Assembly: GCA_029260965.1 (NCBI GenBank)
Contig: JAJDCG010000001.1
Location: 20,803 to 84,802 of the forward strand
DNA from: Candidatus Levyibacteriota bacterium
GTDB taxonomy: Bacteria; Patescibacteriota; Microgenomatia; Levybacterales; UBA12049
Direction of reading: 5' to 3'
DNA: 64,000 nucleotides
The position numbers and the translations under genes are program-made. A model generated the notes under the pieces. It did not search any database. It saw only the letters and a program-made list of their open reading frames with translations, and had not been told where the DNA came from. Below are positions 41,134-61,837 of the stretch, piece after piece (position 1 is the stretch's first letter; the number at the start of each line of letters is the position of its first letter).

Positions 41134-41221
41134 GGAGGAGTCGCATAGCTTGGTCCATTGCGGGGGTTTGCTAAATCCCTGAGTAGAAATACTCACGCAG
41201 GTTCGAATCCTGTCTCCTCCG
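41134..41221 (+). tRNA. tRNA-Ser (anticodon GCT)
   Basis: Acceptor GGAGGAG/CTCCTCC, anticodon loop TTGCTAA, long variable arm, T-loop TTCGAAT, discriminator G. Confidence 0.8.
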
Positions 41222-41229
41222 CAACATTT

Positions 41230-41733
41230 ATGAAAAACTTAAAATCCAATCTTCACGAAGATTATCTCAGGTCTCTGATGTTTGGTCTTCAAGATGGAAT
41301 TGTTTCTACAACTGGAGTTGTTGTTGGAATCTCAACCGGTGTTAACGATAAGGCAATTATCGTTCTGGCAGCAATCGTTGCAGTCATGGTGGAGGCATCA
41401 TCAATGGGTGCTGGACAATACTCCAGTGAAAAAGCAGTTCATCAAATGGATAAAACTGGCAAACATACAGACAACTTATTAATAGGCGCATTTATTATGT
41501 TTTTTGCATATTTGATCGGTGGTATGTTTTCAATTGTTCCAACCATAATTCTTGATCAGCCGATTGCGCGATATGCTGCCATTGCCTCATCTTTCATAGG
41601 ACTTTTTGTAATCGGATTTCTCAAAGGAAAAATAGTTGAACACAGACCATGGAGATCGGCTATTGAGCTCTTCATCATCGGCTCAATCGCCACAACAGTG
41701 GGAATAGTAGTTGGAAGTTTTTTGAAGGTCTAG
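41230..41733 (+). CDS. VIT1/CCC1-family (iron/manganese transporter-like) membrane protein
   Basis: FGLQDGIVSTTGVVVGI matches the VIT family conserved segment. The track start at 41158 overlaps tRNA-Ser, so I use the ATG at 41230. Confidence 0.5.
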   Translation: MKNLKSNLHEDYLRSLMFGLQDGIVSTTGVVVGISTGVNDKAIIVLAAIVAVMVEASSMGAGQYSSEKAVHQMDKTGKHTDNLLIGAFIMFFAYLIGGMFSIVPTIILDQPIARYAAIASSFIGLFVIGFLKGKIVEHRPWRSAIELFIIGSIATTVGIVVGSFLKV

Positions 41734-41760
41734 GTTAGTAATTCGTTGCTTTTCTAATTT

Positions 41761-41850
<90 letters not shown>

Positions 41851-41931
41851 AGATCATAGTATTGTAACAAAAACAAGTCATCCAGTCACGCACAAGTTGA
41901 CTAACAAGCCCATTCGTGTAAAAATATTTTT

Positions 41932-42459
41932 GTGGCCAAAAAAATTACCATCTATACAATCCTTGCTCTTGCTATCGGCATATCTCTAGGCTATTTTCTC
42001 GGCTATGATATCGGTTGGGAAAAAGCACTCTCCCAGCACGCGATAGATGAAACGGCACATGATGACTCAATGTACACAAACCATATGCAACACGAGCAAA
42101 TGGAAGCAACAACTCCTGTCCCATCTGTTGATCTGGTTATCCACAAAGACCCAAAAGGTGGATATAACGCACAGATCATTCTTACCAATATGGTTTTCTC
42201 GCCCGAAAACGTAAGCGGAGATCATGTACCAGGTCAGGGACATGCCCATATTTATGTTAACGGTATAAAGATAAACAGAGTTTATGGAGAATGGTATTAC
42301 CTAGGAGAACTTGAACCTGGCATTCATGAGGTATCTGTAAGGCTCTCAACCAATAACCATAAGGAGCTTGTCCAAGATGGGAAGATTATAACTGATATTG
42401 AAACAATTGAAGTTGCAGAGCAGGAAAATTCAATGAACAACATGCAAATGGAAAAATGA
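41932..42459 (+). CDS. Hypothetical membrane-anchored protein (175 aa)
   Basis: N-terminal TM, His-rich soluble domain. Confidence 0.35.
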   Translation: MAKKITIYTILALAIGISLGYFLGYDIGWEKALSQHAIDETAHDDSMYTNHMQHEQMEATTPVPSVDLVIHKDPKGGYNAQIILTNMVFSPENVSGDHVPGQGHAHIYVNGIKINRVYGEWYYLGELEPGIHEVSVRLSTNNHKELVQDGKIITDIETIEVAEQENSMNNMQMEK

Positions 42460-42869
42460 ACATGTTCAAGCCTGTTGCGGCAAAATCAGTTGATGAATAC
42501 ATAGGACTCCTTGAGCCCCAACGAAAAGAAATCATCAAACATCTCCACAGTCTTATTCAAAAAACCTCTCCAGATCTCAAGCCTCATTTCGCCTATAACA
42601 TGCTCGGCTATGGTAGTTTTAAATATAAAAATTATAAAAAAGAAATAATTGATTGGCCAATTATTGCTCTTGCAAGTCAAAAAAATTATGTCAGCCTTTA
42701 TGTTTGCTCGCTTGAGGGTGGTAAATATCTGGCTGAAAAGTACAAACAAAAACTGGGTAAGGTTAGTGTCGGCAAATCTTGCATCAGGTTCAAAAAACTT
42801 GAGGATTTGAATCTGGATGAAGTCAAAAAAATTATTAAAAAAGCAAGCAACAATCCAGGCTTATCTTAA
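42456..42869 (+). CDS. DUF1801 (YdhG-like) domain protein
   Basis: SVDEYIGLLEPQRKEIIKHLHSLI...HFAYNMLGYG pattern typical of DUF1801. Confidence 0.45.
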   Translation: MNMFKPVAAKSVDEYIGLLEPQRKEIIKHLHSLIQKTSPDLKPHFAYNMLGYGSFKYKNYKKEIIDWPIIALASQKNYVSLYVCSLEGGKYLAEKYKQKLGKVSVGKSCIRFKKLEDLNLDEVKKIIKKASNNPGLS

Positions 42870-42907
42870 AATTTGACTTTTAACCTTCGACTGTTTACAG
42901 TTTTAGT

Positions 42908-43468
42908 ATGCCCATCTCCCAAAAAACACACTCACAAAAACAAAAACCACTTGAAGATATTATGTATGAACATAATGTTCATACATATCTTGAATGGCAC
43001 GCACCCGGAAGACCTTTTAAAGAACATTCTTTTGAATACTACTTTAATATTTTCCTAATCATGATCGCTGTTGAGATAATATTATTTTTATTTGGTCAGT
43101 ATATTTTAATGCTTGTTGTTTTCTCATTAGTTTTTTTCACATTTAGCCTGTCTCTTGTGCCACCGAGAAACTTTTATTACACAATTTCTTCTGAGGGCAT
43201 ACGAGTCGAGGATCATTTTTTTATCTGGGAGGAGCTTTATGATTTCTTCTTTATCAAACACCATGGTAAAGATGTACTCTACGTAAGAACAAAGGCCTTT
43301 TTCCCAGGTGAATTGAACATAAATATAGACGGGATAACAACAGATGAAATAAAAAACACACTCCTTCCCTATCTTCCATTTCGTGAATACGTAAAACCCA
43401 CTTTTATAGAAAAGTCAGGAGATTGGCTTTCAAAAAACTTCCCATTGGAAAAAACTGCAAAACAATAA
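42908..43468 (+). CDS. Hypothetical membrane protein (186 aa)
   Basis: Two central TM helices. Confidence 0.35.
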   Translation: MPISQKTHSQKQKPLEDIMYEHNVHTYLEWHAPGRPFKEHSFEYYFNIFLIMIAVEIILFLFGQYILMLVVFSLVFFTFSLSLVPPRNFYYTISSEGIRVEDHFFIWEELYDFFFIKHHGKDVLYVRTKAFFPGELNINIDGITTDEIKNTLLPYLPFREYVKPTFIEKSGDWLSKNFPLEKTAKQ

Positions 43469-43503
43469 TATCGCGATTAATCCTCTTGTCTTTTACAAGC
43501 TAC

Positions 43504-43593
43504 TGCGGAGGGTACAGGATTTGAACCTGTGAATCCACCATAGGCGGATCGAGTTTTCGAAACTCGTGCAATTGGCCACTATGCGAACCCTCC
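43504..43593 (-). tRNA. tRNA-Ser (anticodon CGA)
   Basis: GGAGGGT...CGAGT-TTCGAAA-ACTCG...long variable arm...ACAGG-TTCAAAT-CCTGT-ACCCTCC-G. Confidence 0.8.
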
Positions 43594-43601
43594 ATCACCA
43601 G

Positions 43602-43675
43602 TACTCCCGAGAAGATTCGAACTTCCGACCTCAACATCCGCAATGTTGCGCTCTATCCAGCTGAGCTACGGGAGC
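43602..43675 (-). tRNA. tRNA-Arg (anticodon GCG)
   Basis: GCTCCCG-TA-GCTC-AGCTGGATA-GAGC-G-CAACA-TTGCGGA-TGTTG-AGGTC-GGAAG-TTCGAAT-CTTCT-CGGGAGT-A. Confidence 0.75.
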
Positions 43676-43729
43676 AATACGCGTATTTTACCTAAATATT
43701 AAAAGAGGTGCAATTAAATGACCTAGGTT

Positions 43730-44569
43730 TTAATTCCCTTTTCCTCGAGGTGCTGTACCACCTGCTGTTGCGGAAAGTCCAAATATAACTGCATAATAAC
43801 TAAGAAGAGTTCCGATAATAATCGTATACATAGCTATCTTAATTGTTTTTTTCAGCTTTGGATGTTCTACGGAGAATAATTTACTTTCTTGTTTAATCTT
43901 CATCATTCTTGACATTCCCACCTTTAATCTCTCTCTATCTTCCTCTGTTAGTTGATCGTGCTCTTTGTCTTTTAGTTCATCAACATCAGCTTTTTCTTGC
44001 TTGAGTTCTGCCATTATTTTATTATAATCAGCTAACATTTTTTCCTGCTCTTCGGGAGCAAGTTCTTCCTCTGTAAGCTCCTCTGTGTTTATTACCTTTT
44101 CTGCCGCACTTATCACATCATCTCTGACATTCCCCTTTTCATCAAGGATTTCTGGTCCTGCTTCATCAACTGAACCACCCTCTACTGCTAGAACCTCCTT
44201 CAACAAATTGTGCGCTTCTTCGTGTCGCCCTGCTGCTCCCAGTCTCAAAACCTCAGCAATTAATTCTTCTAGAGATGTCTCCCTCTCATCTCTTACAGGT
44301 ACATCAGACGACTCATCACCTGCAGGATTATTTGGAGGACGCATTCGCCCAGGCGCTCCTCCACGAGGACCGAAAGAGCGCCTACCTCCAGTAAGCGGTC
44401 TTCTTCTTTCCTCGCCCTCGTCCACCGCATCCTCCCCAGTGGGGCGCTGTTCGTCTGGATTTGTAGGATTTTCTCCGTTTTCTGGCTCCATATATAATGC
44501 TTCTGTCATTTTATATCCTCCTTTTAGTTTATGCAAATAATAGGCTATAATTAGATTGATTATAAACAA
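43730..44569 (-). CDS. Hypothetical acidic, Pro/Glu-rich tail-anchored protein
   Basis: Low-complexity acidic sequence with single C-terminal TM (IAMYTIIIGTLLSYYAVIFGL). Confidence 0.35.
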   Translation of the reverse strand: MFIINLIIAYYLHKLKGGYKMTEALYMEPENGENPTNPDEQRPTGEDAVDEGEERRRPLTGGRRSFGPRGGAPGRMRPPNNPAGDESSDVPVRDERETSLEELIAEVLRLGAAGRHEEAHNLLKEVLAVEGGSVDEAGPEILDEKGNVRDDVISAAEKVINTEELTEEELAPEEQEKMLADYNKIMAELKQEKADVDELKDKEHDQLTEEDRERLKVGMSRMMKIKQESKLFSVEHPKLKKTIKIAMYTIIIGTLLSYYAVIFGLSATAGGTAPRGKGN

Positions 44570-44629
44570 AGATTGTAAGCACAGCTTTATATTAATCTTA
44601 TAGCTAAATTATAATTTTAAAAAAATGAT

Positions 44630-44716
44630 GGAGGGATCGCATAGTGGTCTAGTGCGCGGGCTTGGAAAGCTCGTATGGTCGAAAGACTATCGGGGGTTCG
44701 AATCCCCCTCCCTCCG
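44630..44716 (+). tRNA. tRNA-Ser (anticodon GGA)
   Basis: GGAGGGA...CGGGC-TTGGAAA-GCTCG...long variable arm...GGGGG-TTCGAAT-CCCCC-TCCCTCC-G. Confidence 0.8.
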
Positions 44717-44758
44717 CAACTTGACAACACTATCAAAATACCTCACACTAAAATAGCT

Positions 44759-47011
44759 ATGCTCTCTGCCCGCAAAGTCTTCTTATCTTTTTGTTTGTTT
44801 TTAGTTACATTTCTTGCAGCTCCATCCTTATCTTTTGCCCAATTACCAACATCCAATCTTAATCCAGAAGTCCCACGCAACCAACACACCCTCGCACAAT
44901 CAACAATGATCGAAATAATGTCTGCAGTCATTTGCCAAATGACAGGCATAGATCCACTTTATCCAGAACAGGGTTGTCTAGGGTTCAATACAGAAACAAA
45001 AAAGTTAGGACTTATACCTCCAGAGTATGATGATAATGGCAAACTTCAGGCAGGAGGGATGTTGGGGGGCACATCGGATATGATTGCAGCACTTTATACA
45101 CCAATTACATCTACTACAGAATTTGTGCACTATATGACGCGCGATTTTGGAATCGTAAAAGACGCTAATGCACAGGCAGGATATGGTTTTCAAGCACTCA
45201 GTCCAGTACTTGCTGTCTGGGAAGTTGTCCGTAACGCAGCCTACACCCTTCTGGTGCTTGCATTCGTTTTCATTGGCATCGGCATTATGCTCAGGGTCAA
45301 AATCGACCCCAGAACAGTTATGGGTATTCAAAACCAAATCCCTAGAGTCATAATTGCAATACTTCTTATCACCTTTTCCTATGCAATCTCTGCTGTGCTG
45401 ATTGATATGATGTGGGTCACAACATATGCAGGAGTAAACCTGCTCACAAACGCCCAGGGAGAAAGTATCAAGGTTGATTCCTGTAAGTCCACAAACAACA
45501 AAGTAGGAATAGCAGAACAAGTAAATAAAAATATTCTTCAGACACCAATGACCTTCTTCCATCAAGTATTTGCTGAATGCGACGACAGCGAACAGGAGGG
45601 AGTTTTACAGGGAAGGGGATACCTACAGGGCAACAACAGGGACGGCGGATTTCATGTAATGACCAAAGCAATAGGGGGTGCTACGGGACAATTGATTAAT
45701 AATACTGTAAGAAGTATTTTTCTTGACGAAGACGATGAATCAAGAGACTGTGGTTTGCTCAGTACGCTGGGGAATCCAATCCAGTGTGTTAAAAAGGGCC
45801 TGATTAATGGACTTGGTTTTTTTGCAAGCCTTCTCACAACTATCATCATCTTTACAGTCCTCCTTACCACGCTTTTTAGAATCTGGTTTATGCTTCTGAA
45901 GGCGTTTGCCTATACTCTTATCTACACAATCACCGGACCCATCTATATCGCGTTTGGGCTTCTACCTTCAAAACCGCTTGGATTTGAAAAATGGCTTCGT
46001 TCAATATTTGCAAACCTTGCGGTTTTTCCTCTGACTGCTTTTCTATTGGTAGGAGCCAGGCTTATGGTTGGTCTTTATGAAAACGCCTCAACTACTGCGT
46101 TCACACCACCGCTTCTTGGGAATACCGCAAACACGAACTATGGTGTTTTAATTGCACTAGGCATCCTTCTCCTAGGGCCTGCAATAGGAGACATCCTACG
46201 AGACAAGATGGGTGCACAAAATCTGAAAACACCTGGCATTGTCAAAACAGGACTGATACTTGGTGCTGCACCAGTTGGGCAGCTTGCCAATAGAATAAAA
46301 GCCAATGCCACAAGACGCGATAATGCAGGAAATCCAATCGGCAGCTTTTCAGCTGGCGTGGAGCGCAGCACTTCTGCTGCCAAACAATCACTTGGAAAAA
46401 TACCGATTATAAAAAGTCTAGGAGGAGAAAAATATGCCATTAATGAAGCTGAAAAACGCACCAACAGGCAGCGCTATGGAATGGCCGCAACCAATAAACA
46501 AATCCTTAAAAACAACGAGCATTTTGGTCTGGAAAAAGTAAAAGGTAAAGCAAAACTCAAAAACGGAAATACTGTCCAAAGTGCTAGCGATTATCGAAAG
46601 TGGGTAGGTGAAATGAGCACGGATGATAGAAAAAAACACATACAAGACGTGATGGGTGGCAGGCGCTTGGGCGCACATGGTTGGTACGGAGACGAACACG
46701 CATCAAGAACTGGAGGAGAAAGGGGATCAGAAGGTAGCAGCAACCAAAATAGCAGCACAAACATAAACACTCCTCATGTAACCATAAGGGCAGGAAGCAT
46801 CGAGGGTCTGCATGAACGTATGGATGAAAAATTAAGAAACAGCACGCCTGAAGCAAGAGAACGATTCCAAAACAACTATCATGCAAAAACTGCTAATAAG
46901 TTCATCAACAAAGATCAATCCTCTTACAGCACCGAGGAGCGAGAGGAAGCAAAACGTGTTCTCGAGGAAATACTCAGCGAAGAAAACGGGGATGGGAACA
47001 ACTCTGCTTGA
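44759..47011 (+). CDS. Large polytopic membrane protein with signal peptide; possible VirB6/TrbL-like T4SS channel component
   Basis: Signal peptide MLSARKVFLSFCLFLVTFLAAPSLSFAQ, at least 6 TM helices, long hydrophilic C-terminal tail. The track start at 44675 overlaps tRNA-Ser, so I use the ATG at 44759. Confidence 0.35.
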   Translation: MLSARKVFLSFCLFLVTFLAAPSLSFAQLPTSNLNPEVPRNQHTLAQSTMIEIMSAVICQMTGIDPLYPEQGCLGFNTETKKLGLIPPEYDDNGKLQAGGMLGGTSDMIAALYTPITSTTEFVHYMTRDFGIVKDANAQAGYGFQALSPVLAVWEVVRNAAYTLLVLAFVFIGIGIMLRVKIDPRTVMGIQNQIPRVIIAILLITFSYAISAVLIDMMWVTTYAGVNLLTNAQGESIKVDSCKSTNNKVGIAEQVNKNILQTPMTFFHQVFAECDDSEQEGVLQGRGYLQGNNRDGGFHVMTKAIGGATGQLINNTVRSIFLDEDDESRDCGLLSTLGNPIQCVKKGLINGLGFFASLLTTIIIFTVLLTTLFRIWFMLLKAFAYTLIYTITGPIYIAFGLLPSKPLGFEKWLRSIFANLAVFPLTAFLLVGARLMVGLYENASTTAFTPPLLGNTANTNYGVLIALGILLLGPAIGDILRDKMGAQNLKTPGIVKTGLILGAAPVGQLANRIKANATRRDNAGNPIGSFSAGVERSTSAAKQSLGKIPIIKSLGGEKYAINEAEKRTNRQRYGMAATNKQILKNNEHFGLEKVKGKAKLKNGNTVQSASDYRKWVGEMSTDDRKKHIQDVMGGRRLGAHGWYGDEHASRTGGERGSEGSSNQNSSTNINTPHVTIRAGSIEGLHERMDEKLRNSTPEARERFQNNYHAKTANKFINKDQSSYSTEEREEAKRVLEEILSEENGDGNNSA

Positions 47012-47035
47012 TAAACTTGCCTGATCCAGGCAGGC

Positions 47036-50000
47036 TTATCTTCCTTCTGATGTCTGTATAGCACCTTTTAGCAGAGTGCCCAATACAGCCAGGTATGTAG
47101 CCAGGCCTATCCTGCTATCAGGACTTCCTCTTTGTCCCAAAAACGCTTCTTTCAAAGCACTCCTGAGCGTAGAGCGCAGCAGTGATGTTTTGGTTATATT
47201 CCCAAACCACTGCATCTCTTCTTGTTCATAATATCCTGGTATCAGCCTGACATCACCTAGACTAAATTCGCTCCCTAAAATATCTTTTGGCAAAGTTTTG
47301 AGCGCGTCTGCGACAGTCAGAAAATATGCCTCATTATATCGAGAATCCGTCATCGAATAGCTTCTGAAGCTTACGAATTTAGATGCCAACTCTGTAAGCA
47401 CAGCTCTTCTTACAAGAAGCTTCATATGTTTTGGGTCATTTAGCTTGTTATAATCTATCTTTATTCGCCCATCAACATCCTTTACGACTTTACCTTTTTT
47501 ATCTCTCATCCAAAAAGAACTGCTGTTGAGCAGGTCATAACCAAACATATGCTCACCCAGAGTCATGTCTCGCCATATAGCCTCACCTGCTGTCAGTGAT
47601 GCTTCTTGATCAAGATAGCGATCCTTTTTCGAGTAATCGAGACTACCATAATCAGAAATAAGATATCTATATGGAGTAACAAGCTTTTTCTGAAAATCCT
47701 GTATAAACACTTCTTTTTGAAAAACAGGACCCTGAACAGGATGATGCTCTGTAAAATTTTTAAAATCAAACTCCTCCTTAGCGCTCATTATGTGGTCATA
47801 CATGTCAAGCCCTTTTCCGAGCTGGTCATTTGCCCAATTAAACAATGCATTTTCATTAAATGCTATCCTTCCCGTCATTTTCTGATATTGTTCCTGAAAG
47901 TATCTGGTCAAAAACCTGAGTCCATTTTCTTCCTTCTCTATCTCCGCTTCAGACGCACCCTGCCTCCTCATCTCTTCAATTTTCTTCCTGTATTTCTGGA
48001 GTTGCCTTTCTTGGGCTGTTTTCATTATGTCTGTTTCATCAAACTGTTCTTTTGCCGTGGTGTAATGCCTTCTACCCTCTTTATCCACTGTGAAGTGCAC
48101 TGTGTTTACTCCTCTCCATGTATCAGTAACCAAAGCTTTTTCCTGAAAAGTTCCAGGGTAATAACCGCCAGGATCTCCTTTCTTAAGTACCTTCACACGA
48201 TAAGCCGAAAGATTCATGGCTCTACCAGGGATCGTAACCGAGGGCTCATAGACATCATTTCTTGCCCAAATTAGCGCAGGTGCGGTCATGCCATATGAAA
48301 GCAGATCTGCAAATTTCAGGTTAATTTCATGCTCATCCCCCGTCTTTGTCCTGAGATGGAACTGCTCAGCAACTGTTGCCTTCATCACCTCACGCAAGGG
48401 CAGCACTACTTTTTTATTTTCGTTTTTCTGGACAAAAAAATTAATAAATTTTACAAAATTATCAGCATTGCTTTTGGTGGTTATCTGTCCGTTTTTATCA
48501 AAAGCTTTCACAAACTGTTCATGCGTCTCAAATCCCCAAAAGGCCTGCACTTCTTTTTCCCCTGTTGACTTTGTGCTTTCACCAAGTATTTTCATTAAGC
48601 CCTTTTCCCAGGTTTCTCTTTTGAAAAAATTTGAATCCTGACCTAATATTTCCTGAAGCTTTGAAAAATCAGAAAGCGCATCATAAACTCTGTACATCTT
48701 ATTGTATGCAGCCCCGACATCACTGTCGCTATAAAGAGGTTCTCCTTTTCTGGAGCTCTTGAACTCATTTGGAAAAAGCATCATATGGCTCATCAGGTTC
48801 TTACCCAAGGCATCCTTGGTAAGAGTACTCCCAGCCATCATCTCAGTAATAGTTTCTTTAAACTTTTCTCCATCTGCTCTTACTTTCTTAAGTTGCGCTG
48901 TCTGGGTTAAAAGAGTGGACAAAACCCAGGCTTCTTTTATCCATTGTGCGTAAAGATCGTTATATCTTGTTTCTCCATCTTCTGATTTAAAAAACCCTCC
49001 AGTAGGATTTGCAAACATACTCATAAGATTAGTTAAAGTCCCTCCATAACCTATACGTGCAAGACTTACTTCTTCGAAAAAATTATGTGGATCATCAGGA
49101 TTCAAGTCATACATCTCATACATTTTATTTCTCACCCACTCAACCATATTTCCTTCATTCACATAGTACTTGCTTCTCTCTGCATCAACAACCTTGTGTC
49201 CTTTTTCCATTTTTGTGACAATTCTCATCTCAAGAAGAGGAAATTTATCTGCAATTCCCCATTTATCATGCGATGTAGAATGCATCATGCGCCAAGCAAG
49301 CTCCTCAATGGTATCTGGTGATGCATCATACTCCTCTATGTTAAGGTTACCAGTTGCATTTCTACCTGTCTTGAGAAGTGCTTTGGGGAAAACAAGCCTC
49401 CTAACCCACTCTTCTGGCAAGTCAAGACTAATGGCAACTCCCTTTTTATCATCATCTAGCCACCTGTCATGCTCTCCTGTCAGTATTTTATACTTTTTTC
49501 TCAGATTCTCATTGCTGGATGAATGATCAATTTCTTCACCAGTCTCCCTCTTGTATGCAGCCATTGCTGTTTTGATAGAACTGATGAGCTCATCTGGCTT
49601 CCTGCCTCGAGCCAAAAACATCTCAAGAAGCATCCTTGTCTCATCATCTGAAACATGAAGATTTTTAATAAGCTCCTCTCCTACCTCAACTATTTTCTCA
49701 GTTGGCCAACCATATTCGCTCCAGTCCTCTTTCCTCCAGCTTTTCCTTGCAGCCTTCTGCTCAACCTCACTAGCACCCTCTCTAGCATAGGGTAAATTTT
49801 TTTCACTTCTGAGTACCTCGCCCGGAACAGGCTCATCCCCACCGCCTTCAAGCCTTTCCTGCTCTGTGAAAGCTTTTACTTTCTCTTCAATCTCGTAAAG
49901 TTGTCTATGCGTGCTGGCAAGAACAGCCTCATTACTCAACTCCTCATTTTCCATTATTTCCTTAAACCTTCTTTCCTCTTCGCTTGTAAGTATTTTCTTT

Positions 50001-50311
50001 TGTTTTTCTGCCTTCTGATACTCCTCTTTGGAGCTTGCATTTCCTATAAAGGGTTTTTCTTTGCGGTTGATAAATTCTCTAATTTGATAGTAAAGATCTC
50101 TTGTTCCTGCATCTTGCCGGATTTCATCAAGGCTTCTACCATGATTTTCTTGCACAAATTCATCCCAAGCTTGATATATTTCTCTTGTCTCACTGTTTCC
50201 TTCAAGAACTGCTGCACCTGCTTCTGACATACCTCTATCATATCGACTGGCAGACTGTGGTGTCAATTTAATTTCATGCTCCATAATGATTGGATTGTAA
50301 TCAAAACCCAT
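47036..50311 (-). CDS. Very large hypothetical soluble protein (1091 aa), no recognisable motif
   Basis: Uninterrupted ORF, no signal peptide/TM, embedded between VirB6-like gene and T4SS-like cluster on opposite strand. Confidence 0.5.
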   Translation of the reverse strand: MGFDYNPIIMEHEIKLTPQSASRYDRGMSEAGAAVLEGNSETREIYQAWDEFVQENHGRSLDEIRQDAGTRDLYYQIREFINRKEKPFIGNASSKEEYQKAEKQKKILTSEEERRFKEIMENEELSNEAVLASTHRQLYEIEEKVKAFTEQERLEGGGDEPVPGEVLRSEKNLPYAREGASEVEQKAARKSWRKEDWSEYGWPTEKIVEVGEELIKNLHVSDDETRMLLEMFLARGRKPDELISSIKTAMAAYKRETGEEIDHSSSNENLRKKYKILTGEHDRWLDDDKKGVAISLDLPEEWVRRLVFPKALLKTGRNATGNLNIEEYDASPDTIEELAWRMMHSTSHDKWGIADKFPLLEMRIVTKMEKGHKVVDAERSKYYVNEGNMVEWVRNKMYEMYDLNPDDPHNFFEEVSLARIGYGGTLTNLMSMFANPTGGFFKSEDGETRYNDLYAQWIKEAWVLSTLLTQTAQLKKVRADGEKFKETITEMMAGSTLTKDALGKNLMSHMMLFPNEFKSSRKGEPLYSDSDVGAAYNKMYRVYDALSDFSKLQEILGQDSNFFKRETWEKGLMKILGESTKSTGEKEVQAFWGFETHEQFVKAFDKNGQITTKSNADNFVKFINFFVQKNENKKVVLPLREVMKATVAEQFHLRTKTGDEHEINLKFADLLSYGMTAPALIWARNDVYEPSVTIPGRAMNLSAYRVKVLKKGDPGGYYPGTFQEKALVTDTWRGVNTVHFTVDKEGRRHYTTAKEQFDETDIMKTAQERQLQKYRKKIEEMRRQGASEAEIEKEENGLRFLTRYFQEQYQKMTGRIAFNENALFNWANDQLGKGLDMYDHIMSAKEEFDFKNFTEHHPVQGPVFQKEVFIQDFQKKLVTPYRYLISDYGSLDYSKKDRYLDQEASLTAGEAIWRDMTLGEHMFGYDLLNSSSFWMRDKKGKVVKDVDGRIKIDYNKLNDPKHMKLLVRRAVLTELASKFVSFRSYSMTDSRYNEAYFLTVADALKTLPKDILGSEFSLGDVRLIPGYYEQEEMQWFGNITKTSLLRSTLRSALKEAFLGQRGSPDSRIGLATYLAVLGTLLKGAIQTSEGR

Positions 50312-50397
50312 TCAGTCCACTTTATTTTTATTTTATAGAAACATTACAAAATATTAAAAAAGTTGTGCTATATAAGCAGAACAATTACAATAGCCTC

Positions 50398-51723
50398 ATG
50401 GGACCAGAACGTTTTGAATCTATATATCCCGATACTGTTCGTTCAGAAGAGATAAAAAAAATAATATCTTATGTAAAAGAAGGAAAGTCTACGCAACTCA
50501 TAAGCATACCTGGTGCTGGACGATCATCTATACTTGGTCTTCTTTCCCACAATGATGCTATTAGAAAAAAATATCTCGGAGACAAAAAAGATATTCATTT
50601 TGTGCTTGCCAATTTTTCTGAGATTAGAAAACGACCCCTCTTCGACGCAATAAAATTTCTATTTCTGAGCCTGACCAACTCATTAAAAGAGAAAAAAATG
50701 AACGAATACAATAAGATTAACTCACTATTTAAAGAAAATCTTGCTTATAATGATGAGCTTGTACTTTTTCAGGCTCTGAAAGAAGCCATTGACTATCTAA
50801 CAATTGAAAGAAAAACAAAAATTGTTTTCTTGTTTGATCGTTTTGATGAATACATTCCGTATTTGACACCAGAATTTTTTACTAATTTGCGCTCCCTCAG
50901 ACAAAGAGCTAAATACAGCCTTTCTGTTGTTTTTTCAATCAACAGACCACTTGAAGACGCTCTTGAGCCTACATTATTGTCAGATTTCTACGAATTTGTG
51001 GCAGGCAATCAAATCTATGTAGGGCTTGTGGATCTTGAAATGACAACCTTCAGGGTTAGGTATATTGAAAAAATTTCCCATAAAAAACTGCCATCAGGAG
51101 TATTTGAACAGATTATGAAACTCACTGGTGGTGATGGAAGATTGGTAAAGCTGTCTGTTGAAATTCTATTGTCAAATCCTAAGCCTAAGAATCTCAACGA
51201 TTTTTTACTGTCCCAGGAATCAATCAAAAGCGCTTTAAGCGAATTATGGCGCTCTTTTCTCCCTTCAGAGCAATCAGACCTCATAGAAGGAAACTTTGAT
51301 AATGAAAATATAAGAACTCATCTTGAAAACGTGGGTGTTGTTAAAAATAAAAAAATACAAATACCTCTTTTCTCAGAATTTATAAAAACACAGTATCAAA
51401 AACTCAAAAATGGAAAAAATCAGTTTATGTATGATGAGAATACAAACAGCATTAAAAATAATGATGCCATATTCTCTGACCAACTAACATCTTCAGAATT
51501 CAGGCTGCTCAAATTCCTCATCCTCAACAAGGATCGAATTATTAATAGAGAAGAGATTATAAATTTTGTCTGGTCTGATCAAAAATCAACTGCAGGAATT
51601 ACTGACCAGGCAGTAGATCAGCTAATTTTTCGCTTGCGACAAAAAATTGAAGAGAACCCGAATAGCCCCATTCATCTTCAAACAATCAAGGGACGAGGAT
51701 TTCGCTTTTTACCAAAATGCTAA
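50398..51723 (+). CDS. Putative regulator: N-terminal P-loop/AAA-like ATPase domain + C-terminal OmpR/PhoB-type winged-helix DNA-binding domain
   Basis: Walker-A-like ISIPGAGRSSILGLL, Walker-B-like KIVFLFDRFDEY; C-terminal LTSSEFRLLKFLILNKDRIINREEIINFVW...QAVDQLIFRLRQKIE...IKGRGFRF is a trans_reg_C signature. The track start at 50290 overlaps the divergent gene, so I use the ATG at 50398. Confidence 0.55.
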   Translation: MGPERFESIYPDTVRSEEIKKIISYVKEGKSTQLISIPGAGRSSILGLLSHNDAIRKKYLGDKKDIHFVLANFSEIRKRPLFDAIKFLFLSLTNSLKEKKMNEYNKINSLFKENLAYNDELVLFQALKEAIDYLTIERKTKIVFLFDRFDEYIPYLTPEFFTNLRSLRQRAKYSLSVVFSINRPLEDALEPTLLSDFYEFVAGNQIYVGLVDLEMTTFRVRYIEKISHKKLPSGVFEQIMKLTGGDGRLVKLSVEILLSNPKPKNLNDFLLSQESIKSALSELWRSFLPSEQSDLIEGNFDNENIRTHLENVGVVKNKKIQIPLFSEFIKTQYQKLKNGKNQFMYDENTNSIKNNDAIFSDQLTSSEFRLLKFLILNKDRIINREEIINFVWSDQKSTAGITDQAVDQLIFRLRQKIEENPNSPIHLQTIKGRGFRFLPKC

Positions 51724-51766: not shown

Positions 51767-52093
51767 ATGAGCATTTTGTCACAAGCCAAGCTTCCGAAGC
51801 CACCTTCAAGTATTCCCAGCGTGCCAACTGGTCAATCAGGTCTATCATATACTGGAGAGATTTTAAGAAACGCCATTACAATCATGATAATAATTGCTAT
51901 AATCTTGTCTGTTATTTTTCTTATCATCTCAGGTATCAAGTGGATCACATCAGGCGGAGACAAAGAAAAACTCCAAGCTGCAAAAGCAAGACTAACATGG
52001 GCCATTGTTGGCCTGATAGTTGCCTTTGTGGCATTTTTCTTAGTAAATATTTTGGGCTACATCTTTGGAGTAGAGTTGCTTGGATTCTTTTAA
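51767..52093 (+). CDS. VirB2/TrbC-like pilin-family small membrane protein, paralog 1
   Basis: Two hydrophobic helices flanking conserved IKWITSGGDKEKLQAAKARLTWAIVGL shared with the next two ORFs. Confidence 0.4.
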   Translation: MSILSQAKLPKPPSSIPSVPTGQSGLSYTGEILRNAITIMIIIAIILSVIFLIISGIKWITSGGDKEKLQAAKARLTWAIVGLIVAFVAFFLVNILGYIFGVELLGFF

Positions 52094-52145
52094 ACTTAAG
52101 TATTGACAAAAACAAAACAAGTGTTCTAGTATAAAGACAACCTAT

Positions 52146-52538
52146 ATGAAAAAACTAGTAAGCGCAGCCGTGGGAGTAGTATCTTATCTTTCGTTAGCAG
52201 GTGGTGCTTTTGCGCAGACGGTTGATCCCTGTCCAAAAGGTGAATTCAACGCACTTTGTTCAAAATTTAATGCAAGTGATACTGGAAGCATTATTGGCAC
52301 AGTGCTAACCTTTCTTCTCATCGCAGCTGTAATTGTTGCGCTTTTCTTTCTGATCTGGGGGGGCATCCGTTGGATTACATCAGGCGGAGACAAAACCAAG
52401 GTTGACTCAGCCAGAGGGCACATAGTTGCAGCAATCGTAGGTCTACTAATTGCTTTTGTTGCTTACTTTATAGTACAAATAATACTGAACGTATTCGGTC
52501 TTGGCCCTGTCAGTAGCCTAGAGCTTCCAACTTTCTAA
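52146..52538 (+). CDS. VirB2/TrbC-like pilin-family small membrane protein, paralog 2 (signal peptide)
   Basis: Signal peptide MKKLVSAAVGVVSYLSLAGGAFAQ, Cys pair, TM, IRWITSGGDKTKVDSARGHIVAAIVGL, second TM. Confidence 0.45.
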   Translation: MKKLVSAAVGVVSYLSLAGGAFAQTVDPCPKGEFNALCSKFNASDTGSIIGTVLTFLLIAAVIVALFFLIWGGIRWITSGGDKTKVDSARGHIVAAIVGLLIAFVAYFIVQIILNVFGLGPVSSLELPTF

Positions 52539-52589
52539 TCTAAATCTTCTTGTGTTTTACTTTTCCCTCTGATATTCTGAATTAGTCTT

Positions 52590-53000
52590 ATGAAAAAAAT
52601 CCTTCACTTCTTTCTGCTTTTTACGACAGCTAGTCTTGCACATCCATCAAATGCACACGCGCAGCTTTTTAAAAACTGGGATCAGGTAGTATCTGGATGT
52701 GTAATTGATGGAGTGCCCACTCTCCGATGCTTACCTGCTGTATTTGGAAACCTCATAAATGCAGGCATTGCTTTTGTGGGTGTTGTTGCTGTAATTCTCA
52801 TAGTTTACTCTGGAATAAGACTTATAACCTCAGGTGGAGATCCAAAAAAAGTTGCAGGAGCTCGTCAAATTATGACCTATGCCATAATTGGCTTAGTACT
52901 CGTGCTCTCATCCTTTGCTATAGTATTGTTCATCGGCTATGCTACCGGTAGCAGCGACTGTATTGGAGACCTAAACAACATAGCCTCTGGATGTAAATAA
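52590..53000 (+). CDS. VirB2/TrbC-like pilin-family small membrane protein, paralog 3 (signal peptide)
   Basis: Signal peptide MKKILHFFLLFTTASLAHPSNAHAQ, Cys pair, TM, IRLITSGGDPKKVAGARQIMTYAIIGL, second TM. Confidence 0.45.
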   Translation: MKKILHFFLLFTTASLAHPSNAHAQLFKNWDQVVSGCVIDGVPTLRCLPAVFGNLINAGIAFVGVVAVILIVYSGIRLITSGGDPKKVAGARQIMTYAIIGLVLVLSSFAIVLFIGYATGSSDCIGDLNNIASGCK

Positions 53001-53102
53001 CAAATTCTCCAAGTTTTCACAGACCCAGCCTCAAAGAAAATTTTTTTGATCTACTTTGAAAGAGTTGCAAACATATTTTTCACGTTATACACTTTTTTTA
53101 CT

Positions 53103-57206: not shown

Positions 57207-58691
57207 ATGGATGATGAAGAAAGACAGGATGACGCTCCTGAAGAGGAACCCCAGGATGAAGATGGCGAAAACGATCAAGGAGTTAGCCAACCTGGTGCTC
57301 CAGGTCGTGGGGCCCGTGTATCACAAAAGGGTGGCAGAATAAAAAATGCTCTTAAAGAAGGTGCAAGGGGACTCAGCAAGGGTAAGGGAAAAAACGCAGC
57401 AACAGACGCATTGAAAGGATTCAGGCATGGCAGTATAAACAAAGATGATGAAGACAGTAAACATAAACGACCGTCCCTGAGGCAAATCCGTCGTTTTAGC
57501 AAAATGGCAAAAGGACTTAAGGGCGCAGGTGGCGCAGCTGGTGGAGGAGCAGCAGCTGGTGGAGAAGCAGTAGCAGCAGGCGCAGCAGCAGCTGGTGCAG
57601 GAATGCCTGTTGCATTAATTGTATTAATCGTGGTTTTTGTAATTATTCTGCTTTTTGGCTTTATATTTATGTTTAATAATCCCGAACCCTCAATCCTTTC
57701 AATAACTAAAACTGGCCCAGAAACAGCTTCCTCAGGAGAGGAAATAACTTATCAGATAAATGTCTCATATCCCGACACGGCAGAAAATATAATAATAAAA
57801 GATCGTATTCCTTCTGAAACCGACTATGTATCCTCCTCTCCCTCTGCTAGATTTGACGCTTCTACAAGGACAGCTACGTGGAGCCTAAGCGAGTTTATTT
57901 CCCCTATAAATAATGTGAACACCACTCTAAACATCAGCCTGCGCATAAAAGATGGGCTAACAAATGTCAACATAATCAACCTGTCCGAGGGTGAAGTTAT
58001 TGGTGGCGGAACTGACCCAGGCACCGGAACTCCGACAGGCGATATCGCAAAACTATTGCCCCAACCCCTACCCCCAGACTCTCCCTCGGTTCTAAACCGC
58101 AAATCAGCAGTCATACTATCAACACAAAACACCACGAACAAGGAAGCATACGAAAAAGCCTCTCTAGCCACAGGCTTACCCTGGCAGGTTTTTGCAGGCA
58201 TACACTACAGAGAGGGAGGGGCTGCTCCAAACAAATCTATTGTCAGTGGTAGAACTATTGGCTCCCGAGAACCAGATGTTGAAAATGGACCAGGGTGCAG
58301 CGTGCATAATACAAAAGGAGCTACTGATGGTCTTGCTGAAAAACTCAGCAGTGGGGGCTGTGGTTTTAGTTCTCTTGCTGATTCAGCAATCTATGCAGGA
58401 ATTCTTTTGAAAAAAAAGGTTAACGGTAACCTGAATAGCTACGAGGACCTTGTAAAAGCTTTGTCAAGATACAATGGCGGTGGTAACGCAAACTGTGGAA
58501 AGACACCCTATACTGGTTGTCCAAAACTCTTCTACGGAGAAGACGACACTTATGTCGTAAACCTTTTTGATGAAAAGCACGCAACTATGTATGTTGTTTA
58601 TTGTGCTGATCACACCTTGTGTAATCCTCCCAAAACAGACTCTCGACCAGGCGCAGCAACAGCTATAAAATGGGTTTCGCAGTCAAATTAA
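57207..58691 (+). CDS. Surface/membrane protein: acidic N-terminus, Gly/Ala-rich segment, TM, DUF11 (conserved repeat) domain, Cys-containing C-terminal domain
   Basis: ITKTGPETASSGEEITYQINVSYPDTAENIIIKDRIPSETDYVSSSPSARFDASTRTATWSL fits the DUF11 repeat pattern; single TM VALIVLIVVFVIILLFGFIFMF. Confidence 0.4.
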   Translation: MDDEERQDDAPEEEPQDEDGENDQGVSQPGAPGRGARVSQKGGRIKNALKEGARGLSKGKGKNAATDALKGFRHGSINKDDEDSKHKRPSLRQIRRFSKMAKGLKGAGGAAGGGAAAGGEAVAAGAAAAGAGMPVALIVLIVVFVIILLFGFIFMFNNPEPSILSITKTGPETASSGEEITYQINVSYPDTAENIIIKDRIPSETDYVSSSPSARFDASTRTATWSLSEFISPINNVNTTLNISLRIKDGLTNVNIINLSEGEVIGGGTDPGTGTPTGDIAKLLPQPLPPDSPSVLNRKSAVILSTQNTTNKEAYEKASLATGLPWQVFAGIHYREGGAAPNKSIVSGRTIGSREPDVENGPGCSVHNTKGATDGLAEKLSSGGCGFSSLADSAIYAGILLKKKVNGNLNSYEDLVKALSRYNGGGNANCGKTPYTGCPKLFYGEDDTYVVNLFDEKHATMYVVYCADHTLCNPPKTDSRPGAATAIKWVSQSN

Positions 58692-58727
58692 ATTGTTATT
58701 GTCGTTTGTTTTTAATAAACTAGAACT

Positions 58728-59291
58728 ATGTATGCTTTAAAAGGTAAGTTTATTCTTTTTGCTTTAGCTATTATTCTCATAATAATCTTGACTGTTCTTG
58801 TGTTTTTTTCTTTTTCACAAACAGACAATCAAGACGACACAGGAACCACGCCCATAAAACAAACGGGTTCGGAAAACAAAATTCCTGCTTTTAAAACAAT
58901 CACCAACATACCAACAACTACTGAAGGCATAGACGAAAACTCTATAGAAGTAAAAAATTCGATTAAAGAGATAGAAAATCTCTATCCACACTTACCATAT
59001 TCTGAAGAACTCGTCTCATCCACAGGAGTAGATCTATCAATACTCATTCCTTCCAGGGAGTTTCAAACAAACAGTTTTACTTTGTCTGTTGAGGTATTTG
59101 GAATTGACTATAACATGCCTGTTGATGATCCTAATTACAGCAATATGCAAGCCTCTTTTCTGGAAGGAGCAGAGAAAATTTTTTCATTCATAAAAAGCAA
59201 GAATGTTGATCCCAAAAAAATTATCTTCTCCTGGGGTGATCGATTGTTTATACAGGAAAGGGCACAGGAGTGGTTAAAGGATGTTCAATAA
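58728..59291 (+). CDS. Bitopic membrane protein (N-terminal TM + periplasmic domain), T4SS-associated hypothetical
   Basis: Topology only; within T4SS-like cluster. Confidence 0.35.
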   Translation: MYALKGKFILFALAIILIIILTVLVFFSFSQTDNQDDTGTTPIKQTGSENKIPAFKTITNIPTTTEGIDENSIEVKNSIKEIENLYPHLPYSEELVSSTGVDLSILIPSREFQTNSFTLSVEVFGIDYNMPVDDPNYSNMQASFLEGAEKIFSFIKSKNVDPKKIIFSWGDRLFIQERAQEWLKDVQ

Positions 59292-59294
59292 ATT

Positions 59295-59993
59295 ATGAAG
59301 AAAATATCTGTTTTTATCATCACATTAATTTTTGTTTTCGTGAGTCTTTTTTTGCCGCTTAAAAGCTTTGCACAAAGCTCTGTAAGTTGTTGGGTAACTA
59401 AAATAGGCACTCCTAGTGAAGAAGCTGTGCTCCCTTTTCCATGTAGGGGAGCCGAAGATATCAATGGGCTGATTTATCCCCAACCATTAACAAAACACCC
59501 GACTAGAGCCGGCTATTATCAACTTCCCCCTTCTACTGATGGTTCTTACCGTATTGAGACGTGTCCTGGGCAATCATGGGGCTCACAGGAGTTGGTGGGC
59601 GTACTCTATACTGTTGCTAAAAGATGGAAAGAACTACACCCTAGAGGAAGATTAAACATAGGTGATTTGAACGCTTTTGGTCATAAATCACACAACTGGG
59701 GACGTGCAGTAGACCTTGACGCAACCACAACAGGTTCAGATTGGGTTGCTGACTTCACAAAGGGCAATTACAACAGGAGTGCAACAATTGAACTTGGCAA
59801 GCTGTTTGTGGATACGAATCTAATTTTAAATATTTGGTATAATGATCAAGCCGTAAACAATGAGGTATTGGCCTATTCAAGAGCTACAGGAAAGTCTTTA
59901 GGAATGAATATGAAACCCATAGTTGGACACAACAATCATTTCCATGTCGACATCAACACAGAAAAGCTTGGTTTTTGGGTTCCGGGATGTTAA
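59295..59993 (+). CDS. Secreted LAS-type zinc metallopeptidase, peptidase M15 (MepA-like murein endopeptidase)
   Basis: Signal peptide; H-x-x-H...D (FGHKSHNWGRAVDLD) and HxH (HNNHFHVDI) zinc-ligand pattern characteristic of MepA/VanY/M15 enzymes. Confidence 0.55.
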   Translation: MKKISVFIITLIFVFVSLFLPLKSFAQSSVSCWVTKIGTPSEEAVLPFPCRGAEDINGLIYPQPLTKHPTRAGYYQLPPSTDGSYRIETCPGQSWGSQELVGVLYTVAKRWKELHPRGRLNIGDLNAFGHKSHNWGRAVDLDATTTGSDWVADFTKGNYNRSATIELGKLFVDTNLILNIWYNDQAVNNEVLAYSRATGKSLGMNMKPIVGHNNHFHVDINTEKLGFWVPGC

Positions 59994-60595
59994 ATATGAG
60001 AAATTTTATAATAAAATATAGGTTTTTTTTAATCCCCATTGTCCCTCTTTTATTCGTTTTTTTTATGTTTTATTTTATAATATCCAACTCGCCAGCTCCA
60101 CACTCAAACACAGTACCCTCTCAAGCACCCAATAACTCAGACAACACAATACAAACAGATCAACAACTAGTTAATGATTTTGACGTACTTGAAGGAAACG
60201 AAGAACCAATTGGCACAGAAGGTCTAATACGTACAGAGAGTCTTTCTGATGGTACTGAAAAAAAATATTTTTTATCTTCTGTTCCTGGTCGGGAGAGAAT
60301 AATAACAACCAAAGGAAAAGATAATATTATTTTTGAATCCATACCTATAGGTGCAGATTTTTCTGTGAATTTAAATGACTTCACACAGGTATATGGTGAT
60401 GCGCGTTTTGTTTTCCTGGGATCTTCTTTTTATGGAGGATCTGCAGAAACTCACATCTACGCGGACGAGGGTATTGCTATAATCGTAAACCCTGCAACAG
60501 GACAGGTTTATGAGCAGCATGTTTTCATACCGGTTAGAACAGAGGATTATGTGAGGCTCTTTGGAGAAGATATCTCTTCTAGTTCTGGACCCTGA
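59975..60595 (+). CDS. Bitopic membrane protein, possible VirB8-like T4SS component
   Basis: N-terminal TM FLIPIVPLLFVFFMFYFIIS followed by about 170-aa soluble domain; assignment by topology and context only. Confidence 0.3.
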   Translation: MGSGMLNMRNFIIKYRFFLIPIVPLLFVFFMFYFIISNSPAPHSNTVPSQAPNNSDNTIQTDQQLVNDFDVLEGNEEPIGTEGLIRTESLSDGTEKKYFLSSVPGRERIITTKGKDNIIFESIPIGADFSVNLNDFTQVYGDARFVFLGSSFYGGSAETHIYADEGIAIIVNPATGQVYEQHVFIPVRTEDYVRLFGEDISSSSGP

Positions 60596-61688: not shown

Positions 61689-61837
61689 ATAATACTTTTT
61701 GTTGTTGTAGTAGTGTATCTGGAAAAGTGGAAAAAAGCAATATTTACCAAATTTTCAGGCATAAAAAAATGTGGATAAAAAGTTGATAAAAATGGGTATA
61801 TCTTGTAGATTAATTTTATTTTTGTAATTATCATAAG
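61689..61837. promoter_or_regulatory. dnaA-dnaN intergenic region with perfect DnaA box TGTGGATAA (61770-61778) and AT-rich unwinding-like tract; candidate oriC component
   Basis: Direct reading; second perfect box at 63242-63250 upstream of dnaA. Confidence 0.55.

Follow-up and report, generated by a model that had tools for sequence, protein, structure and literature searches.

A large protein family of new fold linked with the type IV secretion system in Candidatus Levyibacteriota

A stretch of 64,000 nucleotides from a Candidatus Levyibacteriota bacterium (GenBank assembly GCA_029260965.1, contig JAJDCG010000001.1, positions 20,803 to 84,802), here called the window, contains on its minus strand, at 47036..50311, an uninterrupted open reading frame (ORF) that opens with ATG and spans 1091 codons. 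It is the longest ORF of the window, as the first-pass annotation, made from the letters alone, had stated; the runner-up encodes 811 amino acids (aa). Its product, hereafter the large protein, belongs to an undescribed family that has a new fold and is linked to a type IV secretion system (T4SS); no published description of the family was found in a literature search. Judged from the linkage data, a role of the large protein in the T4SS is very likely, and the role that we tentatively favor is that of an accessory subunit.

Linkage of the large gene to the secretion system

The same order of genes was observed in 11 of 11 independent loci: a convergent gene for a VirB6-like membrane protein, the large gene, a regulator gene, and an array of pilin genes. 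Loci were reached from members of the family (window/L001, L002-5, L006, L008, L009, L010, L011/12, L013, and short P0121 contigs) and, in three cases (L014-L016), from homologs of the VirB6-like protein; the linkage was thus seen in both directions. The tail-to-tail gap between the large gene and the VirB6-like gene ranged from -4 to +137 nucleotides (nt) across loci, and the linkage extended to family members beyond the reach of single-sequence phmmer detection. Each locus held exactly one family member, no paralog was present in the flanks or in the window, and across the 11 loci the family was not seen outside this context. In L002-L005 and L014, the genes for VirB4, TrsD, and PrgI were not within 10 kb, so the T4SS genes are split there over at least two chromosomal sites, yet the four-part module remained intact. 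Whichever way it points, the regulator gene always adjoins the large gene at its 5' end; it is co-directional with the pilin operon (window, L013) or with the large gene (L002, L006, L009-L011, L014-L016). Conserved linkage to signature genes across divergent genomes is the mark of a T4SS-associated gene, and the large gene bears it. The first-pass annotation had placed the gene between a polytopic membrane gene and a T4SS-like cluster and had proposed a link to the adjacent apparatus; the placement is confirmed, the link has gained strong support from synteny in relatives, and no homology to a housekeeping family emerged.

Small genes of the PF05635 family ('23S rRNA intervening-sequence protein') were observed within the module in L002/L004 (9516..9887), L013 (4005..4379), and the P0121 contigs. 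Their insertion points vary, some separating the regulator from the large gene and others falling within the T4SS operon, and since they are absent from the otherwise near-identical L003 and L005, they suggest mobile insertion.

The module and the T4SS genes of the window are as follows:

44756..47011, plus strand: VirB6/TrbL-like polytopic membrane protein, convergent partner of the large gene; 751 aa, signal peptide, about 5-6 transmembrane (TM) segments, hydrophilic tail of about 270 aa; start corrected
47016..47034, no strand assigned: GC-rich hairpin with an 8-bp stem, filling the 24 nt that separate the convergent stop codons; probably a bidirectional terminator
47036..50230, minus strand: most probable coding sequence of the large protein; 1064 aa, about 123 kDa, isoelectric point (pI) 5.8; starts at the family-conserved Met, ORF residue 28
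50398..51723, plus strand: regulator; N-terminal P-loop-like domain (GAGRSS, LFDRFDE by eye) and C-terminal OmpR/PhoB-type winged helix-turn-helix (wHTH), Trans_reg_C E = 2e-18
51767..53000, plus strand: three VirB2-like T4SS pilin genes (51767-52093, 52146-52538, 52590-53000), PF18895 E = 1e-10 to 7e-8
53046-54356, plus strand: PrgI/VirB3-like gene
54360-55046, plus strand: TrsD-like gene
55043-57187, plus strand: VirB4 ATPase gene, conju_CD1110 E = 3e-117
18887..21280, minus strand: homolog of the VirD4/TrwB-type type IV coupling protein (T4CP); 797 aa, TrwB_AAD_bind E = 7e-11, TraG-D_C; 26 kb from the T4SS cluster

The start of the VirB6-like gene was moved to 44756 because tRNA-Ser(GGA) (44630-44717) overlaps the listed start (44675) of the 778-aa ORF; Met 28, at 44756, is followed by signal-peptide-like sequence. 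At least 365 homologs of its product were found, PF04610 (TrbL/VirB6) being matched by 9 of the 120 listed. They align over just 61-75% of the query, and the tail of the VirB6-like protein is therefore not conserved. The label 'VirB6-like' had been given to this neighbor in the first-pass annotation; the PF04610 matches on some homologs weakly support it, and we read the product as a divergent VirB6-like protein with that degree of confidence. The regulator most likely starts at ATG 50398 (441 aa; homologs 441-444 aa) and not at the listed TTG 50290, and its N-terminal domain gave no Pfam ATPase match at E <= 0.01. T4CP genes of Patescibacteria are reported as usually far from virB4, which the layout of the window fits.

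Size, fold and C-terminal tail of the family

Described at first as an orphan, the large protein proved to have numerous relatives. Word-indexed search recovered five homologs (1043-1064 aa, 29-32% identity), and its repetition with a profile added almost none. A profile made from six sequences (the window protein and the five homologs) was then compared with 1.84 billion representative proteins, clustered at 50% identity; 313 were matched at E <= 1e-3, 271 at E <= 1e-10, and 177 at E <= 1e-30, so that the family comprises at least 313 such clusters. Nearly all members fall between 850 and 1900 aa, most between 850 and 1100 aa, with some up to 1890 aa. Where matches belong to named genomes, these are metagenome-assembled genomes of Candidatus Levyibacteriota. 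When 47 diverse and six long members (1394-1890 aa) were scanned against Pfam, no Pfam family was matched by more than two of them and no toxin or enzyme domain was found; none of the long members fuses VirB6 to the large protein, their extensions being hydrophilic.

Conservation is concentrated in a core at ORF residues ~320-1050, with a handful of near-invariant residues; no stretch of 7-10 conserved columns exists anywhere in an alignment of 68 sequences. The N-terminal third is poorly occupied and variable, and long members extend it with hydrophilic, repetitive helical modules. The most conserved part of the family, in which the window copy is unusually degenerate, is the following:

48119..48331, minus strand: most conserved family block, ORF residues 661-731, AE..A.SM.R..GA.ARND....G.DA.TK......YR.KQ....RGG..GN

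In six long members (P0038, P0041, P0043, P0049, P0050, P0052) the N-terminal hydrophilic extensions measure 400-900 aa and contain recurrent short helical modules with the signature 'h-x-x-x-G-[IVL]-[ST]-P-x-x-[FY]', UBA/HeH-like by eye, and a second recurrent motif, 'AH..G.G..GK.G...V[YF][ND]YT..Q...K...L'. The window protein has no cysteine. The rarity of cysteine (0.08% family-wide) was weighed as a possible sign of export and found uninformative: the cytoplasmic proteins VirB4, T4CP, and DnaA are equally Cys-poor here, and exported proteins are richer in Cys.

The first-pass annotation had called the protein soluble and without recognizable motifs (no HUH, no P-loop), and both descriptions held. 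No 19-residue window of the protein reaches a Kyte-Doolittle value of 1.6, and neither a TM segment nor a signal peptide was found. Across the family, 149 of 153 members lack a TM segment; the exceptions are a C-terminal helix in three and, in P0038, a marginal internal segment (residues 240-258, Kyte-Doolittle 1.71). With neither five or more TM helices nor PF04610, the large protein is not itself a VirB6/TrbL protein. Walker A is absent from it and not conserved in 68 homologs, and AAA, TraG, and TrwB of Pfam are not matched, which sets it apart from the T4SS ATPases; it likewise falls outside the relaxases, having no H-hydrophobic-H motif and no relaxase match in Pfam or NCBIfam. Single-sequence and profile searches of Pfam, NCBIfam, PHROGs, PADLOC, and PDB sequences gave no significant match. 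Weak matches to Cybc1_Eros (E = 0.007), a phage pilot protein (E = 0.036), and TBP (E = 0.07) were discarded as noise. In PADLOC, neither the large protein nor its two neighbors (VirB6-like protein and regulator) had a match at E <= 0.01, and the large protein is thus not placed among anti-phage defense proteins.

Structure prediction gave a confident model. With 68 homologs, AlphaFold reached a mean predicted local distance difference test (pLDDT) of 85.1 and a predicted template modeling score (pTM) of 0.83, with 673 residues at or above 90; with six sequences, pLDDT was 51, and the prediction thus depends on covariation within the family. Alignments and model were built from window:47036-50308 with the first Met dropped, so that residue i of either is ORF residue i+1. 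The model is a single compact body, mostly helical with few small sheets, preceded by a disordered segment at model residues 1-37 (pLDDT <50). Foldseek found no match at E <= 1e-3 among 350,542 PDB chains, nor in BFVD. The PDB library searched includes all solved T4SS subunits, coupling proteins, relaxases, and CagA, and since both searches were empty, no known relative of the fold is detectable at this sensitivity. Even the best hits in the PDB had E ~1 and template modeling scores <0.11, and were mostly alpha-solenoids, transporters, and tape-measure-like helices; at these values the tape-measure, solenoid, and RNA-polymerase hits were not accepted as evidence.

The other conserved trait of the family is the form of its C-terminus, which in the window includes the following:

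47057..47110, minus strand: C-terminal hydrophobic helix IGLATYLAVLGTLLKGAI, after a Gly/Pro/Ser-rich linker

Nearly all members end in a Gly-rich linker followed by a helix some 15 residues long, e.g. 'GIGKALKVFFGSAFK' or 'SFSIFINTVFRGY'. In the model, this terminal helix (residues 1070-1089) follows a loop, is poorly packed, and has a pLDDT of ~50. Across the family the helix is amphipathic and ends F-[KR]-x; the pattern is conserved, the sequence is not. The median hydrophobic moment of the tail lies at the 95th percentile of the 14-residue windows of the same protein, and 54% of members fall in the top 5%. The subclade of the window has a more uniformly hydrophobic tail (IGLATYLAVLGTLLKGAI in the window), with Kyte-Doolittle values of 1.8-2.0 in P0012, P0036, and P0091; the window tail has a mean hydropathy of ~1.4-1.6 over 15-19 residues and a hydrophobic moment at the 74th percentile. 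In form, the helix is compatible with a membrane-targeting helix or tail anchor, and also with a C-terminal recognition signal. MinD and FtsA carry a flexible linker and a short amphipathic membrane-targeting helix at the extreme C-terminus, and the tail of the large protein appears similar in that linker and terminal helix are conserved as a pattern; it differs in that the helix of the window copy is hydrophobic rather than amphipathic.

Start codon, promoter and surroundings of the large gene

The true start of the large gene is most likely ATG 50230, 81 nt inside the maximal ORF. Met at ORF residue 28 (ATG 50230..50228) is conserved in 99% of the 68 aligned homologs, and the resulting length of 1064 aa matches that of the closest homologs. 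The 1091-aa ORF on the opposite strand that the first-pass annotation reported is therefore real, its length as a protein probably overstated. The elements upstream of this Met are as follows:

50231..50311, minus strand: 27-codon in-frame upstream extension of the maximal ORF; houses the gene's own promoter, probably untranslated
50237..50266, minus strand: near-consensus sigma-70 promoter; -35 TTGACA at 50266-50261, N18, -10 TATGAT at 50242-50237, ending 6 nt before ATG 50230
50331..50358, minus strand: degenerate copy of the conserved upstream element, TTTAATA-TTT-TGTAATG-TTTC-TATAAAA; located by position

The promoter matches the sigma-70 consensus at 11 of 12 positions, and TTGACA-N18-TATGAT occurs exactly once in the window. 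An equivalent element was located 6-36 nt 5' of the conserved Met in 10 of 11 loci with DNA available. About half of the family members open with a semi-conserved 'M-K-E ... L-T-x6-Y-[DA] ... M-[SAP]-E', in which the second Met is the 99% conserved one. This N-terminal motif ('K-L-T-x6-Y-D') was considered as a leader or secretion peptide and rejected, being the translation of the DNA-conserved promoter. In L007, L010, and L011, stop codons interrupt the element or it lies out of frame; the implied spacer is 18 nt in all 51 family members that read the element in frame; and in these the residue after Tyr is always one with a codon able to end in T, giving TATxxT. For these reasons, selection acts on the DNA and not on the peptide, and it is on this ground that the coding sequence was placed at 47036..50230 and the extension, which holds the promoter, judged probably untranslated. 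In about half of the family's database entries the start thus appears to be mis-called, with a promoter translated as a result.

The gap between promoter and ATG is 6 nt in the window, L006, L009, and L015, where the expected transcription start is the A of the ATG; it is 12-19 nt in L002, L007, L011, L013, and L016, where a GGAG-type Shine-Dalgarno sequence is present. From this geometry we infer that the large-gene mRNA is leaderless in the window. With the starts given above, the large gene and the regulator diverge across a 167-nt intergenic region (50231..50397), and the apparent overlap of the two ORFs is an artifact of maximal-ORF listing; the overlap of the start region with the divergent regulator promoter, as described in the first-pass annotation, is not supported.

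A second element was observed farther upstream. Its family consensus is TGTAATC-N4-TGTAATC-N4-TATAAAG, and in the form TGTAAnC-N4-TGTnAnC-N4-TATAAAG, variably degenerate, it lies ~100-130 nt 5' of the conserved Met in loci with upstream DNA read (in L009, TGTAATC TACT TGTAATC TCTT TATAAAG). The strict pattern was found in six loci, and a two-repeat pattern adds L014; all matches are 5' of the large gene, and none was found elsewhere in 526 kb scanned on both strands, including the pilin operon. In the window, the consensus repeat has no match at <= 3 mismatches, the copy there carrying more than three. A promoter-like match is present at 50357-50330, and the element can also be read as a TTGTAA-N17-TATAAA promoter. 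It stays in place whether the regulator is co-directional (L002, L006, L009, L010, L011, L014-L016) or divergent (window, L013). Its direct repeats have an 11-bp period, which is the form that operators of the OmpR/PhoB type classically take. The element is thus a candidate for an operator of the neighboring wHTH regulator, for an upstream promoter, or for both, and by analogy we infer that the regulator may bind the direct repeats.

Other genes surround the module in the window. The region 3' of VirB4 (57207..60595, plus strand) encodes a DUF11/CLIPPER-like membrane protein of 494 aa, two small proteins that are exported or lie in the membrane, and a protein of 232 aa that matches Peptidase_M74 (murein endopeptidase) below threshold and is a possible stand-in for VirB1. 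The genes dnaA and dnaN (60579-63211) adjoin the T4SS region, and the window, a segment of a Patescibacteria chromosome, also contains a tmRNA and housekeeping genes; the contig from which the large protein comes is 549,591 bp long. Just 5' of the VirB6-like gene, at 41134..44717, are four tRNA-Ser isoacceptors (GCT, TGA, CGA, GGA) and tRNA-Arg(GCG) with small genes between them; one 186-aa gene (42908..43468) has a homolog near the module in L002 and L011 as well. A 279-aa protein with a C-terminal TM segment (43730..44569, minus strand) adjoins the VirB6-like gene; its PADLOC match to DrmB (E = 0.0015) is probably noise, and unannotated genes of 263-276 aa occupy the same position in L009, L014, and L016. 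Far from the module, a 426-aa protein (15412..16692, plus strand) matches Pfam MATCAP, a family of microtubule-associated tyrosine carboxypeptidases, with E = 1e-23, which is unexpected in an ultra-small bacterium.

Possible roles in the secretion system

Our preferred reading, offered tentatively, makes the large protein a partner of VirB6: an accessory subunit of the chromosomal T4SS that is cytoplasmic, membrane-peripheral, and lineage-specific (Microgenomatia/Levyibacteriota-type Patescibacteria). The proposed arrangement is as follows: the C-terminal helix would park the protein on the inner side of the membrane, where, in the cytoplasm, it would serve the VirB6-like protein as a platform or adaptor; the long, hydrophilic, unconserved C-terminal tail of the VirB6-like protein is a possible docking partner. 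The large protein would then fill the role of the ARM-like helical cytoplasmic domains fused to the 'extended' VirB6 of Saccharimonadia, and the adjacent regulator, by binding the direct repeats, would tune its level. We favor such a subunit for several reasons. Synteny holds strictly, with a single copy per locus and from both search directions, and is closest with the VirB6-like gene and the pilins. The tail keeps its pattern, and in some members it would fix the protein to the producer's own membrane. The VirB6-like tail, in turn, could dock, with Saccharimonadia VirB6 as an analogy. According to Tables S1/S2 of Wang 2023 (PMC10633639) and a FEMS review (PMC12857230), the T4SS of Saccharimonadia includes essential VirB6-like proteins of ~1000 aa whose C-terminal domains are ARM-like.

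Among known systems, the extended VirB6 proteins with their large, hydrophilic, cytoplasmic domains (e.g. SEML1_0011 and SEML1_0013 of S. epibionticum, the VirB6 paralogs of Rickettsiales, and ConG/TcpH of monoderm systems) come close in plan; with the large protein they would have in common a large, mostly helical, soluble mass associated with the VirB6 channel subunit of a T4SS of monoderm type. Those of Saccharimonadia are essential and, going by the domain calls published in the sources just cited, have C-terminal domains classed as ARM-repeat-like. Here, by contrast, a separate polypeptide makes up the soluble mass; its gene is convergent with that of the VirB6-like protein and not fused to it. 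The top Foldseek hits, none of them significant, are alpha-solenoids, at most a hint. Like type IV coupling proteins and their adaptor platforms (VirD4; DotL-DotM-DotN-IcmSW-LvgA), the large protein is proposed to be cytoplasmic, membrane-proximal, and placed to link channel and substrates, but it has no P-loop, TrwB/TraG domain, or TM anchor, and a bona fide T4CP homolog is encoded at 18887..21280. The locus matches the described T4SS of Patescibacteria in its MPF-FATA-like VirB4, TrsD, PrgI/VirB3, VirB2-like pilin array, lack of a nearby relaxase, and location beside dnaA/dnaN (PMC12102498, PMC10633639). Neither the large-protein family nor the wHTH regulator is listed as T4SS-associated by Quinonero-Coronel et al. 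2025 (PMC12102498) or Wang et al. 2023 (PMC10633639). The same two studies reported VirB6 as scarce in Microgenomatia; in the loci described here, by comparison, a divergent VirB6/TrbL-like gene and the large gene are constant neighbors.

Several observations weigh against a subunit. Its role in the T4SS is drawn from context, as no known T4SS subunit matches the protein in sequence or fold, and we know of no T4SS with a cytoplasmic subunit of such size and kind. In all 28 pairwise comparisons of loci, the large protein was the most divergent gene product, with 21-36% identity, often over partial alignments, as compared with 52-87% for VirB4, 43-64% for the regulator, 39-73% for TrsD, 38-71% for the pilins, and 27-64% for the VirB6-like protein. 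Such fast evolution, together with the length spread of 850-1890 aa, is commoner in host-facing proteins than in machine parts. The amphipathic tail could equally target the membrane of a host or act as a secretion signal. Finally, at 12 of the 38 near-invariant sites the window copy has a residue other than the consensus one, a count that ranks second among 68 members (median 3).

The main rival explanation is that the large protein is a dedicated translocated cargo or core effector. Made in the cytoplasm, it would be picked up through its flexible C-terminal tail, perhaps by the VirD4-like T4CP whose gene lies 26 kb away, and would pass through the pilus-bearing T4SS onto or into a host cell, where the amphipathic tail would target a membrane. 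We consider it rather unlikely. Besides evolving fastest in its locus and having a hypervariable, modular N-terminal region, the gene has its own strong promoter and a dedicated regulator, and its product has neither signal peptide nor TM segment. The C-terminus, unstructured and either hydrophobic or basic, comprises a flexible linker, a hydrophobic or amphipathic helix, and terminal basic residues, and is similar in general form to T4SS signals. A single large substrate encoded beside its own T4SS has precedents in CagA and in pertussis toxin and Ptl. CagA, of the Helicobacter pylori cag T4SS, is a fast-evolving, membrane-binding protein of ~120-145 kDa with its own fold, modular length variation, and an information-bearing C-terminal tail. 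The large protein is similar in size, in having its own fold and, like CagA, no homologs whose function is known, in being encoded with a T4SS, and in its fast evolution, variable length, and presumed informative C-terminus; it differs in having no similarity to CagA in sequence or fold (the CagA structures in the PDB were not matched by Foldseek), in that the hosts here would be bacteria or archaea and not animal cells, and in that its translocation is hypothetical. A T4CP homolog is encoded in the window, and the T4SSs of Patescibacteria are relaxase-less and thought to move proteins or something else (PMC12102498, PMC10633639). Strict single-copy synteny over a class-level clade would, however, be unusual for an effector, the scanned members yielded no toxin or enzyme domain, and in S. 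epibionticum the T4CP was not essential, whereas the T4SS was. The C-terminal helix, moreover, is kept as a structural pattern and in P0012, P0091, P0036, and the window copy is hydrophobic enough for insertion into the membrane of the producer.

Other explanations appear less probable still. That the large protein has a function unrelated to secretion, as a regulon target of the neighboring regulator that stays beside the T4SS by genomic inertia near the replication origin, seems improbable to us. The cis-element is indeed specific to the large gene and absent at the pilin operon, and the T4SS region adjoins dnaA and dnaN, where gene order is generally stable (PMC12102498); but the VirB6-like junction and the pilin adjacency outlast inversion of the regulator, gene insertions, and separation from VirB4, and the family has no other context in the 11 loci. 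Scarcely more promising, and if anything less so, is a new kind of enzyme or nucleic-acid factor serving the T4SS, e.g. an unrecognized protein of relaxase-like or processing function, or one that receives or processes macromolecules imported from the host. Such an activity would suit the Gly-rich loops of the family and those of its polar residues that are near-invariant (ARND...G.DA.TK...YR.KQ...RGG..GN, R881, R897, H981, in alignment numbering), but not the lack of an HUH motif, a P-loop, and any fold match to a relaxase, nuclease, or polymerase, nor the acidic character of the protein (family median pI 5.7). The window copy has, in addition, lost consensus residues that include Y473L, G679L, and H981F (alignment numbering), yet its ORF and promoter are intact, which makes these residues more likely structural than catalytic. 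The same losses, along with the degenerate upstream repeat, could mean that the gene is decaying or non-functional in this genome, which we regard as highly improbable: the 1064-codon frame is unbroken, the promoter is kept exactly, a terminator hairpin is present, and P0012, the nearest relative of the window copy, has seven deviations at near-invariant sites, partly common to both. This sharing points to divergence of a subclade more than to decay.

Patescibacteria, which are ultra-small and probably host-dependent, account for a large part of bacterial diversity; in the sole genetically tractable species (Saccharimonadia), the T4SS is essential for epibiotic growth. Their T4SS is puzzling in being relaxase-less, with a dispensable coupling protein and with VirB6 and VirB8 often undetectable. 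The large protein is a specific candidate for a 'missing subunit' or a 'cargo' of this system, linked to the VirB6-like protein and the pilins as tightly as any core component. Two by-products of the analysis are the presence of a divergent VirB6/TrbL-like gene in Microgenomatia and the conserved promoter and candidate operator architecture of the large gene. It is conceivable, if on present evidence doubtful, that the family, at ~120 kDa and with a new fold, is the specific macromolecular cargo of the relaxase-less, pilus-bearing T4SS of Patescibacteria or the cytoplasmic gate that selects that cargo. On this reading, a dedicated ATPase-wHTH regulator would turn the protein on, and the protein would be carried to the host interface or act there. 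If true, this would explain what a widespread T4SS does in one major class of the candidate phyla radiation.

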